Shown here: positions 2,518 to 63,180 of the stretch, one piece after another
Layout: every line of letters starts with the position of its first letter
Position numbering within the stretch: position 1 is the first letter of the stretch
Assembly (NCBI RefSeq): GCF_030532915.1
Contig: NZ_JAUNKD010000014.1
Coordinates: 1,539-65,538, forward strand
Direction: 5' to 3'
Source of the DNA: Capnocytophaga sp.
GTDB taxonomy: Bacteria > Bacteroidota > Bacteroidia > Flavobacteriales > Flavobacteriaceae
DNA length: 64,000 bases
Program-made: the position numbers and the translations under genes
Notes under the pieces: model-generated
Databases searched by the model: none
The model's input: the letters and a program-made list of their open reading frames with translations, nothing else
What the model was told of the DNA's origin: nothing

Positions 2518-3564
2518 TTAGTTTTTTAAAGCGTTCCAACCCTTGGCAATGATTTCGACCGCCTCGCCCGAACGTGTGATAAGCTGTTTTCCTTCTTGGG
2601 AATCCGTGATATAGCCGATGACCGAAAGGTTCGGGTTTCCTTTTATCTTGTCATAATCCTTTTGCGAAATGGTGAAGAGCAATTCATAGTCTTCCCCGCC
2701 GTTGAGGGCTATGGTGGTGCTGTCGAGGTTAAACTCCTCACAGGTGCGAATCACTTCCGGGTCAAGGGGAATCTTATCTTCATAAAGGCGACACCCAACA
2801 CCCGATTGGTGACAGATGTGCAAAATCTCGGACGACAAGCCGTCGCTTATGTCAAGCATTGCCGTGGGTTTGACATTCAATTCTTGAAGCAGGGGTGGAA
2901 TATCTTTACGTGCTTCGGGTTTGAGTTGCCTTTCGATGATGTAGGCATACATATCCAAATCGGGTTGCGAATGCGGGTTCACCTGAAAAACAGCTTTCTC
3001 GCGCTCCAAAACCTGTAAGCCCAGAAAAGCGCCTCCCAAGTCGCCCGTAACTACGATTAAGTCATTCACTTGCGCCTTGTTGCGGTACACGATTTCCGTT
3101 TCGGAAGCCTCGCCAATGGCTGTGATTGACAGGATAAGCCCGCGGGCAGACGAGGTGGTGTCACCGCCCACCAAATCCACCTTATAGAACTCACAAGCAA
3201 GGCGAATGCCTTCATAGAGTTCCTCCAAGGCTTCCAACGGAAAGCGATTGGAAACCGCCACCGAAACCGTGATTTGCGTGGCTTTGGCATTCATCGCATA
3301 AATATCCGAAAGGTTTACCATTACAGCCTTGTAGCCCAAGTGTTTCAAAGGCACGTAGCTCAAATCAAAATGCACGCCTTCAATGAGCAAATCAGTGGAA
3401 ATGACGGCTTTTTTGTCGGCAAAGTCAATCACCGCCGCGTCATCGCCAACGCCTTTTAGGGTGCTTTTGTTTTTTATCTCAAATTGCTTTGTTAAGCGTT
3501 CAATCAGCCCGAACTCACCCAAGTCAGCCAAGGCGGTTCGTTGTTGGTTTTTATCTTCTATCAT
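2518..3564 (-). CDS. thiL: thiamine-monophosphate kinase
   Basis: 348 aa AIR-synthase-related fold; N-terminus GEFGLIERL...GDDAAVI typical of ThiL. Confidence 0.8.
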   Translation of the reverse strand: MIEDKNQQRTALADLGEFGLIERLTKQFEIKNKSTLKGVGDDAAVIDFADKKAVISTDLLIEGVHFDLSYVPLKHLGYKAVMVNLSDIYAMNAKATQITVSVAVSNRFPLEALEELYEGIRLACEFYKVDLVGGDTTSSARGLILSITAIGEASETEIVYRNKAQVNDLIVVTGDLGGAFLGLQVLEREKAVFQVNPHSQPDLDMYAYIIERQLKPEARKDIPPLLQELNVKPTAMLDISDGLSSEILHICHQSGVGCRLYEDKIPLDPEVIRTCEEFNLDSTTIALNGGEDYELLFTISQKDYDKIKGNPNLSVIGYITDSQEGKQLITRSGEAVEIIAKGWNALKN

Positions 3565-3591
3565 ATATAGGTAAACTATTTTATGGGGTTG

Positions 3592-5541
3592 CTATAAAAA
3601 TTCTACTTTCAGGTCGGTTACCTTTCCGTTGAAGTACTCCAAACGTTTTAACGGAAACACCAAGGTTTGCACCCACTTGCGGCGTTTCTTTTCTTCCAAA
3701 TGCGTGTCTTCGGGGTGGTAGATTTCCTTTAAGGTTTCAATGAGTTGGTCATTGACGTAAAGCGCCGTGGTTTTGTTCGTTCCTTTTATGGTTATTTTCA
3801 CCTTTTGTCGCGTTGGGACGAAGTAATTAAAACGATAGTTGTATCCGTCTCGTGAAAAGCCCAGCTTTCCTTCCTTAGGGTCAGCCAGATAAAAAGTTGC
3901 GTAATCAGAGGTGAAGAGCGGGGTGTCTTTGCCGTTTGATTTGGCATTGACGAAAAACGTTACACGATAGTCATACCCGATGTCGGTAAGCTCTTGATTT
4001 AAGTCGGCACCATTGACCGGTTTTTTGATTTCAAAGACTACGCCTTTTTTGGCTTTGGCGGGCTTTCCGAGCAGGTTTACCGAAGGAGCTTCACTGAGCG
4101 CTTTTCGTTGGGCATCAAACATTTCAAAAGGGATTGTTGTGTTTTTTCCGCTCCACATCTTTACTGAAAGGGTTTGCATCGCGGGGAAAAGGCGGTGATA
4201 CACGTCTTGCTGGCTGATGCCGTTGCCCACGTGGTCGTTCCATACGGCAAACATTCCGCCTTTTATTTTCGGGTGTTTGTCATCAAAGACAACATCACCG
4301 ACAACATTAGGCGTCCATTGGTTGTACAATTTTTTGAGATTGAGATAATCAAAATAATAACCGGCAGCCGGAACAATGTACAACCAACCATCGGGAATGC
4401 TTACAATATCGTAGCCCAAAGCCAACATATCCTTGGGTTGAGCGTAGCCGTTGTACCAACAGAACATAAGCACATCGTCTACCTTTACGGGCGTTTTGCC
4501 TTGTGCGTGGGTGAGTGCGCCCCACAAAGCGGCTTTCTTCCCGAAACTTTCGATATACTTAATATAATAATCGGTGAAGTAGCGGAACTTCTCGACAACC
4601 TCCACATCTTTATTGCTGTACTCGTCCGTACCGATATGCACCAACTCATTCACAAAAACAGGCTTGTCGCCGGATAAGTATTCCTTGAATAAGGCATCTA
4701 AAAACTGATATGTTTTGGGGTTGAACAAATCCACGTGGTCGGCGCCATATTCCTTACTTCCGATTTCAGGCAAATAGTGTGAGAATGCCAACGTATGAGC
4801 CGGAGCATCGATTTCTGGAATGATGGTAACCCCGACTTTGAGTGCGTCGAGCTGTAATTGACGAAAGTCTTCCTTGCCGTAATGTCCGTCTTTGGCAGCC
4901 AAACCCGGGTAAGTGTCGCTTTGCAAACGGAAAGCCGAGTAGGTCTTTTGCCAATCCTCGCCGTAGAATTGTTTAAACCCGTTGTCATTCAAGTGAATCT
5001 GGAATGTGTTCATTTTATAGTAAGCCATTAGCTTGACAACCGATTTTAAATAATCGAGTGTGAAGAATTTGCGTCCGGCATCAAGCATAAAGCCTCGGAA
5101 ATGATAATCCGGATAATCGATAATCTCACCCGAAGGCAAGTGATTGGATTGTTCGGCGAGTTGTAGCAGTGTTCGCGTTGCCCAATACAAGCCCGTGCGG
5201 TGGTTAGCACGCACTTTAATGGTGTTGTCGATAATGATTTGATAAGCTTCCTCGCCTTTGTCTTTCAATAGGTTTTTATCAATTTCGAAAAGAATGTCGG
5301 CTGTTTGGGCAGGCTTGATTTCCATTTCTTTTTGAAACATTTCTTTAAAGTCATCAGCAAACAGGCGTGCGACTTCATCGGCGCTGTTATCGGCGGCAAT
5401 GCTTTTCTTTTCGAAGATGTTGAAAGAACCCTTACCTGCCTTCCATTCCCGAAGTTCAGGAATGACAAAAGGTTTGGCGTTCTGTGCGCTCACACAAACA
5501 ACCAAGCCCAACAAAAAGTACAATAAGACGCTTTTTTTCAT
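3592..5541 (-). CDS. secreted beta-N-acetylhexosaminidase, glycoside hydrolase family 20
   Basis: 649 aa with signal peptide; GH20-like catalytic region (…LVHIGTDEY… resembling the H-x-G-G-D-E motif) and N-terminal GH20b-like domain. Confidence 0.6.
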   Translation of the reverse strand: MKKSVLLYFLLGLVVCVSAQNAKPFVIPELREWKAGKGSFNIFEKKSIAADNSADEVARLFADDFKEMFQKEMEIKPAQTADILFEIDKNLLKDKGEEAYQIIIDNTIKVRANHRTGLYWATRTLLQLAEQSNHLPSGEIIDYPDYHFRGFMLDAGRKFFTLDYLKSVVKLMAYYKMNTFQIHLNDNGFKQFYGEDWQKTYSAFRLQSDTYPGLAAKDGHYGKEDFRQLQLDALKVGVTIIPEIDAPAHTLAFSHYLPEIGSKEYGADHVDLFNPKTYQFLDALFKEYLSGDKPVFVNELVHIGTDEYSNKDVEVVEKFRYFTDYYIKYIESFGKKAALWGALTHAQGKTPVKVDDVLMFCWYNGYAQPKDMLALGYDIVSIPDGWLYIVPAAGYYFDYLNLKKLYNQWTPNVVGDVVFDDKHPKIKGGMFAVWNDHVGNGISQQDVYHRLFPAMQTLSVKMWSGKNTTIPFEMFDAQRKALSEAPSVNLLGKPAKAKKGVVFEIKKPVNGADLNQELTDIGYDYRVTFFVNAKSNGKDTPLFTSDYATFYLADPKEGKLGFSRDGYNYRFNYFVPTRQKVKITIKGTNKTTALYVNDQLIETLKEIYHPEDTHLEEKKRRKWVQTLVFPLKRLEYFNGKVTDLKVEFL

Positions 5542-5829
5542 CGGTTTATTATTTTAAAAATTTGTTTTATCGAAACATAAGGCAATACAAACCATACCTT
5601 AAATATACTTATTTAACGGTTAGTTTATGAAAATAACATATTCCATAAGTTTGTCTAAAAAGAAGACAGGATGCTCGTTGCCTACGGATTTATTGCGGCA
5701 AAGATAATACACTTTGCCCAAACGGGCGGCATTCTTGTCTGTTTTCAAACAATCTTATGAAATATGTTTTGCTATTTTTTCAGGATAAGCAAACACCTTG
5801 CCAAGGGGTTGGGCAAGCCCGCCCGCTTG

Positions 5830-6138
5830 TTAGCGTTTGTCATCTATCCCGAATTTGCGCCATAACGCTTGCTCGTAATCGAGTTTTATGCGTTTGCGCA
5901 TCTTGGCGGAACGTTCGTCCATCATTTTTAGCTTCTGGGCAGCCTCTTCGGTTTTCATTTTTAGTTCCGCTTTTAGGCGCTCTTGCTCACTATTGAGACG
6001 TTCCACATCGTTTCGAAGATTTTCTATCTCATCGATAGCTTCTTCTGTAATACCTGCGGGCAGTGAATCTTTGGATTCCCTCAGCCCATCGATTAGCACT
6101 TTTGCAAGTGCCATTCTTTCCGCATATGACTTCGGCAT
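5830..6138 (-). CDS. hypothetical small coiled-coil protein (102 aa)
   Basis: ORF with charged coiled-coil-like sequence; no recognisable domain; downstream (in its promoter region) lies the GCCCGAA 21-bp repeat array. Confidence 0.4.
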   Translation of the reverse strand: MPKSYAERMALAKVLIDGLRESKDSLPAGITEEAIDEIENLRNDVERLNSEQERLKAELKMKTEEAAQKLKMMDERSAKMRKRIKLDYEQALWRKFGIDDKR

Positions 6139-6379
6139 ACTTAAAAGAATTTTAGTTGTACAAAAATATGGTTAAAAAATAAATTATTTTAATATAAACA
6201 ACCTTTTGGGTGTGTTTTTTCATTGTTTAGGGGAGCTAAACCAATGTTTAGGCATTGTTTTTTATACTTTCAGATAGTTTTATGAGATTTTTTTGCTTCT
6301 TTTTTAGCTTTTGGCCACCAAAAAAATGATTTAAATATGATGAAAAAATATTTTTACATATGTTCTGAATTAAAAATCA

Positions 6380-6505
6380 TCTTTCCCGAGTCTTAGTTCA
6401 GCTTCCCGAAGCTAAAATCCACTTGCCCGAAATGTAAAGGCATCTGCCCGAAACACAAAGGTACTTGCCCGAAATGTTAGGGAATGTCTCCCGAGTAATA
6501 GTTTA
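6380..6505. repeat. six tandem degenerate ~21-bp direct repeats, consensus aCTTGCCCGAAatgtaAAGG
   Basis: CCCGA cores at 6385, 6405, 6426, 6447, 6468, 6490 (spacing 20-22 bp, two helical turns) in a 560-bp non-coding gap. Confidence 0.8.
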
Positions 6506-6585
6506 GCTCTTTTAAGCAATGGATTAGTTGGTTTTTGAAATGGTTTAGTTTTCTTAATCAGTAGGCAAATTGCTTTGTTTTATAG

Positions 6586-6627
6586 TCTTCCTAAAACCTT
6601 TGGCAAAGTATCAAACTTTGCCAAAGG
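6586..6627 (-). terminator. rho-independent terminator downstream of fhs
   Basis: Perfect 12-bp inverted repeat CCTTTGGCAAAG-tatcaaa-CTTTGCCAAAGG (6597-6627) followed on the minus strand by a T-run. Confidence 0.6.
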
Positions 6628-6698
6628 TTAGTCTTTCCTAATTACTAATCACGATTTACTAACCACTAATCGCTATTTGCTAATTACGGATTGCTCTT

Positions 6699-8375
6699 CT
6701 ATGAAAGTCCGGTAATCACGCCGTTATCGTCGATGTCCATTCCTTCGGCTGCGGGAACACTTGGTAAGCCCGGCATACGCATTGTATCACCTAAGATAGG
6801 AATGACAAAGCCTGCGCCCGAAGCAAATTCAAACTCGCGTACGGTTACTTCAAAGTCGGTAGGTCGTGCCAGCTTTTTGTCGTCATCACTTAATGATTTG
6901 GGTGTTTTTACCATACAAACGGGCATCTTGTCAAAGCCGAGTTTGTTGATGTTTTTCAGCTGGGTACGTGCTTTTGAAGTGAAGTTCACGCTGTTTGCTC
7001 CATAGATTTCCTTAGCGATGGTTTCGATTTTATCTTCGATGGAAATGGCGTGGTCATACAACGGTTTGAAATGGCTTTCTCCACTCTCGGCAATTTCAAC
7101 CACGGCTTTGGCAAGCTCTTTTGTTCCTTCGCCTCCTTGGGCAAATCCTTTGGAAACGATTGCCTTAACACCTTTTTGCTGACATACTTCCTGAATGAAC
7201 TTGATTTCTTCTTCGCTATCGTTAGGGAAATTATTGATTGCCACGACTGCCTTCAAACCGAACTTCTGCACGTTTTCGATGTGTTTCTCTAAATTCCCGA
7301 TGCCCTTTTTCACCTTTTCGAGGCTTGGTGTGTTGTATTGGTCTTTCACAGCTCCTCCGTGGTGACGCAAAGCACGAACCGTGGCGACAATTACCGCAGC
7401 GTTGGGAGCAATTCCTGCCGAAACGCACTTGATGTTTAGGAACTTCTCTGCCCCTAAATCGGCTCCAAAACCGGCTTCCGTAACGGTGTATTCGCTGAGC
7501 GACATTCCGATTTTCGTTGCCAGAACGGTGTTCGTCCCTTGTGCGATGCTGGCAAACGGTCCGCCGTGCAAAATGGCAGGATTATTCTCCAAAGTTTGTA
7601 CTAAATTGGGTTTGATGGCATCTTTTAAGAGCAAAGCCATCGCTCCCACAACGTTTAAATCGCGAGCGAAAACAGGGGAACCATCGAATTTCTTTCCGAC
7701 GTAAATGTTTCCGATTCGGCGTTTCAAGTCCGAAAAACTTTCTGACAAACAAAGGATTGCCATAATCTCGGAAGCGGGCGTGATGTTAAATCCGTCCTCG
7801 CGGGGCATTCCGTTTGCACTTCCGCCTAGCCCGATAACGATTTGGCGAAGGGCTCTGTCGTTCATATCCATCACACGTTTCCATACGACGGTGCGGGGGT
7901 CAATCCCGATGGAATGCGTTTTGCTTTGGATATTATTGTCGATAACGGCGGCAAGCAGGTTATTGGCTTTTTCGATAGCGGAAAAGTCTCCGGTGAAGTG
8001 CAGGTTAATGTCCTCCATTGGAACTACTTGCGAGTAGCCCCCGCCTGCGGCTCCGCCTTTTATCCCGAAAACAGGACCAAGACTGGGTTCACGCAAAACG
8101 GCTACGGCTTGCTTCCCGATTTTGTTAAGCCCTTCGGTAAGCCCGATACTTACGGTTGTTTTGCCTTCGCCGGCAGGTGTGGGCGTGATGGCGGTTACTA
8201 AAACCAGCTTGTTTTTCTTGATTTTCGCCTCGTCGATGAGTGAGAGGGGCAATTTGGCTTTGTATTTGCCGTATTGCTCCAAATCGTCTTCATTGATATT
8301 TAATTTTTTGGCAACGTCTTTAATGGGTTGCATCTTCGCATTTTGTGCGATTTCTAAATCGGTTGGAAAACTCAT
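6699..8375 (-). CDS. fhs: formate--tetrahydrofolate ligase
   Basis: 558 aa; MSFPTDLEIAQ..., P-loop TPTPAGEGKTT, full-length FTHFS similarity pattern. Confidence 0.92.
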   Translation of the reverse strand: MSFPTDLEIAQNAKMQPIKDVAKKLNINEDDLEQYGKYKAKLPLSLIDEAKIKKNKLVLVTAITPTPAGEGKTTVSIGLTEGLNKIGKQAVAVLREPSLGPVFGIKGGAAGGGYSQVVPMEDINLHFTGDFSAIEKANNLLAAVIDNNIQSKTHSIGIDPRTVVWKRVMDMNDRALRQIVIGLGGSANGMPREDGFNITPASEIMAILCLSESFSDLKRRIGNIYVGKKFDGSPVFARDLNVVGAMALLLKDAIKPNLVQTLENNPAILHGGPFASIAQGTNTVLATKIGMSLSEYTVTEAGFGADLGAEKFLNIKCVSAGIAPNAAVIVATVRALRHHGGAVKDQYNTPSLEKVKKGIGNLEKHIENVQKFGLKAVVAINNFPNDSEEEIKFIQEVCQQKGVKAIVSKGFAQGGEGTKELAKAVVEIAESGESHFKPLYDHAISIEDKIETIAKEIYGANSVNFTSKARTQLKNINKLGFDKMPVCMVKTPKSLSDDDKKLARPTDFEVTVREFEFASGAGFVIPILGDTMRMPGLPSVPAAEGMDIDDNGVITGLS

Positions 8376-53553: not shown

Positions 53554-54126
53554 GTGATGAAAACAAAGTTTTACACATTTATTGTAGCGCTGTTGGTAGC
53601 GCAAGTTGCGTTGGCACAAAATACACCTGTTATAGACACGTTGATGGCTACCCCGATGCAACCCGTGAAAACAGAAGCCGAATTAAAAGCTGAGAAAGAG
53701 CGACTTAAAGCGGAACAAAAGGCGCAAAAAGAGCAAGAAAAAGCATTGAAAGCTGAGGAAAAAGCGCGAAAAGCTGAGGAAAAAGCCAAAAAAGAAGCTC
53801 AAAAAGCCGAAGAAAAAGCAAAAAAGGCAGAGGCAAAAGCTAAAAAAGAAGCCGAAAGAGCACAAAAAGCGGCACAGAAAAACAAGCAAAACCTGATAAA
53901 AGCCAATCAGGAGGTGTCAAAAATTCAAACCAAAATCAAAAAGGTAGAGAATGAATTGGCGCGCGAGCAAAACAAGTACAACGTAAAGAAAGCCAAAGGC
54001 AGCCTCTCACCCAATGACGATGCCAAATACAAAGGCAAAATTTTAAAAAAAGAGCAAGAAATCAATAACTTAAACTTGAAACTGATAAAAGCACAGGGCA
54101 AAGTAAATAAGTATTCCGCTCAATAA
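53554..54126 (+). CDS. secreted Lys/Ala/Glu-rich low-complexity coiled-coil protein
   Basis: Signal peptide then ~70 aa of KAEEKAxKA-type repeats (imperfect 18-21-bp repeats at the DNA level), C-terminal coiled coil. Confidence 0.6.
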   Translation: MMKTKFYTFIVALLVAQVALAQNTPVIDTLMATPMQPVKTEAELKAEKERLKAEQKAQKEQEKALKAEEKARKAEEKAKKEAQKAEEKAKKAEAKAKKEAERAQKAAQKNKQNLIKANQEVSKIQTKIKKVENELAREQNKYNVKKAKGSLSPNDDAKYKGKILKKEQEINNLNLKLIKAQGKVNKYSAQ

Positions 54127-60779: not shown

Positions 60780-60850
60780 TTGGCTCACAAGGACTCGAAC
60801 CTTGAATAACAGAACCAAAATCTGCTGTGTTACCATTACACCATGAGCCA
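60780..60850 (-). tRNA. tRNA-Gln (anticodon UUG)
   Basis: Reverse complement folds as cloverleaf: acceptor TGGCTCA/TGAGCCA, D-stem GTGT/ACAC, anticodon stem GCAGA/TCTGT with loop TTTTGGT (anticodon TTG), T-arm CAAGG-TTCGAGT-CCTTG; CCA not encoded. Confidence 0.85.
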
Positions 60851-63061: not shown

Positions 63062-63069
63062 TATATTTG
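63062..63069 (+). promoter_or_regulatory. candidate Bacteroidota -7 promoter element TAtaTTTG for the SRP-RNA-like gene
   Basis: TAnnTTTG match positioned ~5-12 nt upstream of the first base of the predicted RNA helix. Confidence 0.4.
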
Positions 63070-63073
63070 CACC

Positions 63074-63170
63074 GGCAAGTCCTACACGACCAGCTCCTAC
63101 AAAATCCTCCAGGGTGGGAACACAGCAAAGGTATGTGGTTGTAGCGGTGCGATGTAGGTAGCTTGCCATT
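63074..63170 (+). ncRNA. ffs: signal recognition particle RNA (small/4.5S type) candidate
   Basis: Terminal helix GGCAAGTCCTACA / TGTAGGTAGCTTGCC; apical GTG-GGAA-CAC GNRA hairpin flanked by CCAGG and AGCAA, mirroring the E. coli 4.5S domain-IV UCAGG…GGAA…AGCAG symmetric-loop motif; followed by ATTTTTTATT T-run. Confidence 0.65.
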
Positions 63171-63180
63171 TTTTATTGGC

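Follow-up and report, generated by a model that had tools for sequence, protein, structure and literature searches.

A 64,000-nucleotide stretch of a Capnocytophaga sp. genome (hereafter the window) carries a tandem array of 21-bp units in the 560-bp gap between the formate-tetrahydrofolate ligase gene fhs and the gene for a small protein of 102 residues. Comparison with related loci shows that this array is one member of a conserved array-plus-gene module and that what is conserved in the array is the 21-bp period. The other conserved part is the neighboring gene family, which the preliminary description of the array had treated merely as a landmark. We read the array as a row of putative protein-binding sites, all on the same face of the helix and upstream of the promoter of the small gene, that is probably bound by the small protein itself. 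Judging from the sequences compared here, we put the probability of this reading at roughly 45%.

In the window, the array is most visible in the region 6380-6505, where six CCCGA cores lie on the plus strand at 6385, 6405, 6426, 6447, 6468, and 6490, as the preliminary description had proposed. Their spacings of 20, 21, 21, 21, and 22 bp sum to 105, or 5 x 21, with the deviations of 20 and 22 cancelling. The pentamer occurs 79 times on the plus strand of the window, and in 20,000 random placements the longest chain at 20- to 22-bp spacing had three members, against the six observed; among all 1024 pentamers, only AAAAG and AAAAA form longer chains. The accompanying claim of six degenerate copies stood in part. 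The 19-mer CTTGCCCGAAATGTAAAGG has two matches at three or fewer mismatches (6422 and 6464; 0.07 expected), and Tandem Repeats Finder (TRF) reports 2.8 copies (6420-6477, 70% matches), so likeness to the consensus is restricted to the three central copies. The outer three have little in common except the CCCGA core, and the outermost pair are 80% alike over 25 nt. The whole array extends beyond the six cores: on the minus strand, which is the orientation of the small gene, it comprises nine 21-nt units in register, running from 6556 to 6368 (Table 1). The genomic context had been correctly described with respect to fhs, the terminator hairpin, and the small open reading frame (ORF), and the longest ORF in the gap has only 35 codons' worth of residues (35 aa).

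To the question, raised by the preliminary description, whether the motif is a dispersed regulon element or a unique array, the answer differs from both options: it is no dispersed regulon motif, and it is not the motif that is conserved. The GCCCGAA motif has no second occurrence in array form within the window, and TRF confines the window's non-coding 21-bp-period repeats to the 6139-6698 gap. A metagenome scan for three GCCCGAA motifs at 20- to 22-bp spacing gave at least 120 matches, which were rejected as 7-bp microsatellites, high-GC coding repeats, and unrelated repeats; a gene of the small-protein family lay near only one (L104) of 120 matches, and the pattern is too unspecific (L-numbers denote compared loci or contigs, and P-numbers compared proteins). 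The same scan also brought up, on many contigs, an unrelated family of repeats alternating ATGCCCGAATTTTACATGAT and TTTGCCCGAAAAATTAACAAA at ~21- to 22-bp spacing, with no small-protein homologue nearby (contigs L091, L093, L094, L099, L103, L106, L110, L119, L123, L126, and L130; GC 0.42-0.46).

The gene, and not the motif, led to related arrays. A profile of the small protein retrieved 61 homologue loci from species-representative genomes, comprising Capnocytophaga, Bergeyella, Riemerella, Tannerella, Porphyromonadaceae, Prevotellaceae, Paludibacter, Dysgonamonadaceae, Limibacterium, and five loci from metagenome-assembled genomes (MAGs) of Bacillota. Two to five paralogous loci per genome are common; the window contains one family member. 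Beside most of the homologue genes, TRF found a tandem array of period 21, or of 42 or 63 as higher orders. By a TRF-independent criterion (the best self-similarity lag among 12-31, within 480 bp of the gene and with at least 50% self-match), the best lag was exactly 21 in 44 of the 61 loci, in both Bacteroidota and Bacillota, and 20 in one more, against 21 in 4 of 198 background regions from the same loci. Period 21 was found in 162 of 172 strongly periodic 126-bp segments, and 101 segments with a period of 20-22 bp are located upstream of the gene at no more than 500 bp. TRF overlooks degenerate arrays, that of C. felis for instance, which can be recognized by eye and by lag analysis. With a family gene within ~500 bp of a 21-bp-period array, the window locus belongs to the module thus defined. 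The linkage extends to a third phylum, Spirochaetota: on a megaplasmid of Treponema saccharophilum, 8.4 units of TTTAGGAA-N4-TTCCTAA stand beside a homologue, and the array is followed directly by a TTGAAA-16-TATAGT promoter and then by the homologous gene. Three loci on viral contigs (L074, L075, and L077) have 21-bp arrays too, and in the three Bacillota loci found to have an array, the array follows the gene and its terminator. When 453 flanking ORFs were clustered all against all, no other conserved neighbor gene emerged across the 61 loci.

Close relatives show how the arrays change. The 102-aa protein of the window is 100% identical to P0001, recorded from Capnocytophaga sp., and the metagenomic contigs L002 and L003 encode the identical protein beside a gap that is just 82% identical to the window's. 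Compared with both contigs, the window has an additional 21 bp and an additional 63 bp (Table 1), so that the array changes in steps of whole units. More distant relatives (C. stomatis, C. felis, C. cynodegmi, and other contigs) have six or seven 21-bp-spaced units upstream of an orthologue with 71-84% protein identity, and their core is TTGGGAAAG or TTAGGAAAG, compared with TTCGGGCAAG in the window. Copy number also differs between L043 and L044 (11 versus 7 cores) and between L031 and L034. As tandem repeats of 10- to 100-bp units with strain-level differences in copy number, the arrays can be described as minisatellites, or variable-number tandem repeats.

A minisatellite without function, generated by replication slippage in a permissive intergenic region, would account for this variation, for the 42- and 63-bp higher-order periods that indicate recent tandem duplication, and for the degenerate units of the window and the family genes that have no array. 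We nevertheless regard it as quite unlikely, since neutral repeats have no reason to favor 21 bp, and sequence-unrelated arrays of this one period accompany one gene family in three phyla, far above background. Moreover, cores or arms are conserved around variable palindrome centers, which argues for selection on parts of the unit. The BrickBuilt element of Porphyromonas gingivalis, one of the miniature inverted-repeat transposable elements (MITEs), with a 23-bp minisatellite inside it (PMC4596501), offers a comparison within Bacteroidota. It shares with the module an intergenic tandem repeat of ~20 bp and copy-number variation among strains; unlike it, the module arrays have no identified MITE terminal inverted repeats, are tied to one gene family instead of being dispersed, and conserve their period across phyla and not their sequence.

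The separation of period from sequence is the most distinctive aspect of the arrays' anatomy. Different lineages have unrelated unit sequences (for example, TTAAGGAAACACTCCTTGACC, ACACATGTACTTTTGAAGAGT, and GTACCGCGCCCCAAGACAAGT), and core spacings across lineages are 21 or multiples of 21, with one array of period 20 (L055). In 27 of 49 arrays the consensus unit has palindrome arms of at least 5 bp, and where arrays are best formed, conservation is higher in the arms than in the centers. In well-formed arrays, arm, center, arm, and spacer measure 7+5+7+2, 5+9+5+2, or 6+7+6+2, and the unit length is always 21. Since these parts vary within a fixed length, the constraint appears to lie on helical phase or on a fixed protein footprint and not on hairpin geometry. 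A half-site, T[TA][AG]GG[AG]A, recurs in arrays of Spirochaetota, Bacteroidota, and Bacillota. Orientation relative to the gene is free: CCCGAA...AAAGG reads in gene orientation in L027 and L059 and in the opposite one in the window, and the close paralogues L048 and L041 have TAGGAAAT and ATTTCCTA, respectively, at the same place, an orientation flip.

Many units are able to form hairpins of 5-7 bp with variable loops, and the preliminary description had suggested that the gap could hold a small RNA. If the array acted as RNA, a string of hairpins could serve as a sponge or antitoxin for the small protein, or as a stabilizer or insulator of neighboring transcripts. A slight excess of G:T over A:C mismatches in the gene orientation (117 versus 81) is compatible with this, as is the folding of plus-strand positions 6340-6640, which is better than that of shuffles (z = -2.9), though chiefly owing to the terminator hairpin. 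Covariation gave the opposite indication: across 22 palindromic arrays, compensatory double changes in the arms numbered 15 against 16.5 in shuffles, and pair-breaking single changes (177) dominated over G.U changes (66), in a test of limited power because units within one array are recent duplicates. Conservation in the arms is thus one of sequence and not of base pairing, and hairpins of RNA or of single-stranded DNA were rejected as the functional form, the palindromes being real but without an excess of compensatory changes. Stem, loop, and spacer vary at a constant 21 bp, as helical phasing and not hairpin function predicts; a promoter motif lies between array and gene; the orientation of the array flips between relatives; and many arrays, including most units of the window, have no palindrome. 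Rfam scans at gathering thresholds of the whole window and 15 related loci returned nothing on any array. In an E-value scan of 5600-7000, the best match (5.8S rRNA, E = 1.1) was far under its gathering score, and a match to rli38 (E = 1.2) covers the terminator hairpin and not the array. An RNA function is thus unlikely, and the small RNA of the preliminary description found no support.

The succession of repeats and then gene resembles ToxIN. Like the type III toxin-antitoxin systems (ToxIN, CptIN, and TenpIN), the module consists of tandem repeats, a short gap, and a small gene, in scattered multiple copies. In those systems, however, the repeats are 34-45 nt long, a single upstream promoter is shared with the toxin, and an endoribonuclease of the ToxN fold cuts the transcript. 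The module has 21-bp units, a promoter motif between array and gene, free orientation, and no covariation, and its protein is modeled as a helical hairpin and not as a ToxN-like nuclease, with no match to ToxN/AbiQ in PADLOC, Pfam, or NCBIfam and only weak PADLOC matches to unrelated models. Nor is the array of CRISPR type, its units being contiguous without spacers and no cas genes occurring near the window locus. A CRISPR-like array was seen at a different compared locus (L071, 6372-6935).

With 21 nt equal to seven codons, the array could alternatively be a remnant of, or still encode, a protein of 7-residue repeats. This possibility was suspected initially. The variation of the core among GGA, GGC, and GGT could be synonymous changes of Gly codons, and the variable columns of L043 share a single codon phase (p = 0.04). 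In L012, a 118-aa ORF of 21-nt repeats (622-978; 7-residue, G-D-T-C-A-P-G-like) lies 20 bp upstream of a 45%-identical homologue, the sole case in which the repeat region resembles a called gene. The window array, however, contains stop codons in all six frames, and the variable columns of 43 arrays, taken together, lack codon periodicity (combined p = 0.999, with 1 of the 43 under 0.05, as chance would give). On these two grounds the coding reading was rejected, and we regard it as extremely improbable; in addition, one array (L055) has period 20, and open frames across perfect repeats are expected by chance.

The position of the arrays points instead to the promoter of the small gene. In most loci the array lies upstream of the gene, at a median of 110 bp between its end and the ATG. 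A perfect TAnnTTTG occurs between array and ATG in 9 of 34 loci, the window included, against 9% of shuffled gaps, and it stands 22-46 nt upstream of the ATG in eight of the nine and 83 nt upstream in one. Given the median gap and the intervening -7 box, the arrays therefore appear, by these consensus matches, to lie upstream of the gene's own promoter and not in its leader. In the window the putative -7 box ends 22 nt before the ATG, with the array ~200-390 bp farther upstream; the distance between array end and ATG is ~230 bp, compared with ~65-75 bp in the Capnocytophaga relatives named above. The view that the array is not a standard promoter element and that its spacing corresponds to two helical turns is backed by the conserved period, the insertions and deletions of whole units, the free orientation, and the upstream position. 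Matches to sigma-70-type promoters on the plus strand, pointing into the array, were disregarded because that consensus does not apply to Bacteroidota.

At 50% identity, the family of the small protein falls into 593 clusters. Its members are almost all 101-107 residues long and stand alone, without fusions, and apparent domain fusions in longer members were rejected as mis-called starts. The AlphaFold2 monomer model (predicted local distance difference test score of 95) is all-helical after four unstructured N-terminal residues, with a short helix at 5-21, then a loop that holds the conserved G29, a long helix of 56 residues at 32-87, and another short helix at 90-96. Conservation is concentrated in an N-terminal K-S-Y-A-E, a stripe of N49, Q52, K56, K60, and T63, the pair K82 and K85, and the C-terminal W93-x3-G-I-x-D. 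The protein is mildly basic (median pI 8.8), its ends basic and its middle acidic. Searches of Pfam, NCBIfam, PHROGs, PADLOC, and PDB sequences, and Foldseek against the PDB, gave nothing above coiled-coil noise, and no ribbon-helix-helix (RHH) or helix-turn-helix (HTH) family matched even at E <= 1; an N-terminal strand that forms on dimerization may be missed by a monomer model. Weak similarity was limited to DUF6674 and to PQLLE_fam, an NCBIfam model of 211 positions whose first half aligns weakly with P0001 and whose second half aligns weakly with P0007, as if it were a fused tandem of the small-protein unit. Database labels are "hypothetical" or, in Riemerella and Capnocytophaga cluster records, "membrane-binding protein," an annotation label without visible experimental support in those records. 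The clade with GTAC/GTCA-type units also has KTQSQE in place of the N-terminal KSYAE, a hint that array and protein may covary.

The sites could instead be bound by a regulator encoded elsewhere, for example, of OmpR/PhoB or LytTR type, with the small gene merely a frequent target. Known regulators use comparable geometries: LytTR sites are 9-bp direct repeats with 12-bp spacers, giving a 21-bp period, and OmpR/PhoB dimers cover ~21-22 bp on direct repeats ~10-11 bp apart. The small protein has no known DNA-binding fold, and arrays also occur upstream of other genes (L057 and L026). In L031 (arrays at 2140-2303 and 5595-5749) and L034 (3686-3947 and 7189-7383), two arrays of the same GATAGGAT motif in inverted orientation face inward and flank a 3.2-kb segment, one strand of which contains the small gene and the opposite one a 117-aa gene and an operon for a histidine kinase and an OmpR-type response regulator; a transcription unit that points inward lies downstream of each array. 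Small genes resembling RHH or XRE-type HTH proteins, as judged by eye, adjoin the small gene in Bacillota or unclassified loci (L066, ~3613-3785; L071, ~3580-3722; L060, 476-793 on the minus strand; L069, 4571-5065). Still, the only gene shared by the 61 loci is that of the small protein, with no regulator gene conserved near them; an OmpR-type gene is adjacent only in L031, L034, and L010, and no regulator gene adjoins the gap of the window. With units so divergent, many different regulators would be required to act on one gene family at one period. A foreign regulator seems to us fairly unlikely.

The preliminary description had likened the geometry to iteron or operator arrays. Of these two, same-face protein-binding sites are the better supported, and replication iterons are unsupported. 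The closest known systems are nonetheless plasmid iterons and centromere-autoregulator pairs of the parC/ParR type. In R1 parC there are ten 11-bp repeats and in pSK41 four 20-bp tandem repeats, which a protein of ~100 residues binds cooperatively, building a nucleoprotein structure of higher order, and through which it regulates its own synthesis; plasmid iterons measure 17-22 bp. The module shares with parC-ParR, and also with omega and ParG, short direct repeats of variable number upstream of a gene for a protein of ~100 residues. With the iterons of pSC101, R6K, RK2, and P1 it shares unit length, same-face phasing, direct tandem arrangement, and adjoining AT-rich DNA, which is also found next to the window array. 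Homologues on a Riemerella plasmid and on the Treponema megaplasmid would likewise suit an array that belongs to an integrated or defunct replicon, as its replication iterons or its partition centromere. The module lacks, however, the motor NTPase and the Rep protein of these systems and apparently also the RHH fold: clustering of the flanking ORFs of the 61 loci revealed no ParM, ParA, TubZ, or Rep gene in any locus, and no RHH was detected in the small protein. The module is mostly chromosomal, in housekeeping regions that differ between genomes and with several copies per genome, and its units are far more diverse than those of parC at a period fixed at 21 bp. Near 6.3 kb the window's cumulative GC skew does not switch, the gap DNA matches nothing in the plasmid and phage collections searched, and the small protein matches only 5 plasmid records and none of 50,697 phage records. 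An origin or centromere is accordingly very improbable.

These considerations leave autoregulation by the small protein as the preferred reading. The cis half of the module is a tandem array with a fixed period of 21 bp, equal to two turns of B-DNA, beside the gene of a helical-hairpin or coiled-coil protein. We propose that the array acts as DNA: each unit would be a half-site or a palindromic site, all of them facing one side of the helix, and an oligomerizing protein would occupy the sites cooperatively as a row. The bound row could then control the adjacent promoter, build a local nucleoprotein filament, or both. The module's own small protein is the most economical choice of binder; it might dimerize or form higher oligomers by way of its long helix, and the module would then be autoregulatory. 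Hints in favor of this binder are the half-site shared by three phyla, the altered N-terminus in the clade with GTAC/GTCA-type units, the mild basicity of the protein, and the PQLLE_fam alignment. Copy number would drift by slippage in whole units, which preserves the phase.

Several points weigh against this proposal. What the comparison shows is the array with its phase, its linkage to the gene family, its position relative to the promoter motif, its insertions and deletions of whole units, and its lack of coding or RNA signatures; that a protein binds it, which protein this is, and what regulation results are our inferences. The small protein has no recognizable DNA-binding fold (Pfam, NCBIfam, and PDB; fold matches nonsignificant), and its most conserved residues would need to accommodate widely differing units. 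Roughly one family gene in four has no array (for example, L056 and L079 of Riemerella anatipestifer), and some arrays are not accompanied by the gene (594-847 in L057, 1667-1881 in L026, and the second of the two arrays of L031 and L034). Many units are not palindromic, among them the three GCCCGAA units of the window, whose array is far from the ATG for a simple operator, compared with ~65 bp in C. stomatis. The limited power of the covariation test also counts here.

More speculatively, the small protein may be a new kind of "ruler" DNA-binding protein, whose dimers would polymerize head to tail on one face of the DNA with a footprint of 21 bp (~7.1 nm). The coiled coil, by its length, would set this footprint, leaving the sequence of the array free and its period fixed. 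We think this bolder version rather unlikely.

Table 1. Features of the array locus, with positions in the window.
Feature	Position	Strand	Remarks
Small protein ORF, 102 aa	5830-6138	-	Conserved partner of the array
Putative -7 box TATTTTTG (TAnnTTTG, Bacteroidota type)	6161-6168	-	Consensus match only
Full 21-bp-phased tandem array	6368-6556	-	Register backed by alignment to L002/L003
Array units 1-3 (degenerate)	6556-6536, 6535-6515, 6514-6494	-	Read in small-gene orientation
Array unit 4, palindrome GGGAgacaTTCCC	6493-6473	-	Read in small-gene orientation
Array units 5-7, GCCCGAA/TTCGGGC units	6472-6452, 6451-6431, 6430-6410	-	Register reading
Array units 8-9	6409-6389, 6388-6368	-	Register reading
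Six CCCGA cores	6380-6505	+	Sequence, pentamer chain statistics
63-bp stretch (three units, the GCCCGAA copies) missing in L002/L003	6412-6474		Alignment columns 225-287
21-bp stretch (one unit) missing in L002/L003	6510-6530		Alignment columns 169-189
Terminator hairpin, perfect 15-bp stem	6595-6629		Likely fhs terminator; kept in L002/L003
fhs (formate-tetrahydrofolate ligase, PF01268)	6699-8375	-	Upstream neighbor

The genes around the module vary. In the window, the neighbors are a GH20 gene, the 102-aa protein gene, fhs, and a gene for an NMO-family enzyme, and the terminator hairpin delimits the array on the fhs side. Linkage to fhs recurs in another order in two uncultured Flavobacteriaceae MAGs (L050, 4412-5761; L052, 4412-6085), in which array and small gene are followed directly downstream by fhs, compared with fhs, array, and small gene in the window. 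Since this linkage is limited to some Flavobacteriaceae loci, fhs stands outside the module. Between fhs and the array, C. stomatis, C. felis, C. cynodegmi, and related contigs carry a gene of 209-217 aa that belongs to no Pfam family (L004, 2132-2761; L013, L014, and L015, ~3111-3761; L009, 108-761); it is absent from the window, L002, and L003.

Further repeats were noted near the array and elsewhere. A second 21-bp-period repeat in the gap (6634-6687), rich in ATTAG/CTAAT and made of three units, TTTCCTAATTACTAATCACGA / TTTACTAACCACTAATCGCTA / TTTGCTAATTAC..., is situated between the fhs stop codon and the terminator hairpin; akin to it are GATTAG repeats that follow fhs in L002, L003, and C. 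stomatis. The main array is flanked by an inverted 21-nt match (6221-6241 versus 6501-6521, 81%). Two copies of CATTGTTTAGG, 21 bp apart at 6221 and 6242, may be two inverted array-like units between the array and the small gene. The window's only 21-bp-period TRF repeat beyond the gap is a coding one near 53.7 kb (53685-53852, in ORF 53554-54126), with periods of 21, 33, 42, and 54, AAAAAGC-rich and of Lys/Ala/Glu type. At the second paralogous locus of C. stomatis (L019, 1042-2308 and 4334-5557), a large satellite region of 21-bp units TGGGACGAACAATGTCCAAGA, in blocks of 9.6, 6.8, and 4.4 copies (91-96% matches) interleaved with 105-bp repeats, is separated from the paralogous small gene by ~2-3 kb, in which an ORF of 438 aa is inserted. 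Farther along the window are a tRNA (60780-60850) and, at 63066-63172, a small signal recognition particle RNA of Bacteroidales type (RF04183, 103.9 bits), though the host belongs to Flavobacteriia.

No description of the array-gene module was found in the full-text literature, the coverage of which is incomplete, in Rfam, or in protein-family libraries, and the module is apparently undescribed. Whatever their function, the arrays are strain-variable markers, and their linkage to the gene is a strong, unexplained genomic regularity that annotation pipelines have missed. If the proposed binding by the small protein is correct, an uncharacterized family of at least 593 clusters, from oral and gut Bacteroidota, Spirochaetota, and Bacillota, would join the DNA-binding repertoire, and the arrays would be an unusually clean natural case of a cis element whose spacing is under selection while its sequence is free. 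They might also offer orthogonal operator-protein sets for engineering Bacteroidota. Should the small protein act as a ruler, the module would be a self-contained pair of operator and protein that diversifies rapidly, is present in several mutually orthogonal copies per genome, and controls its own promoter and a few others.

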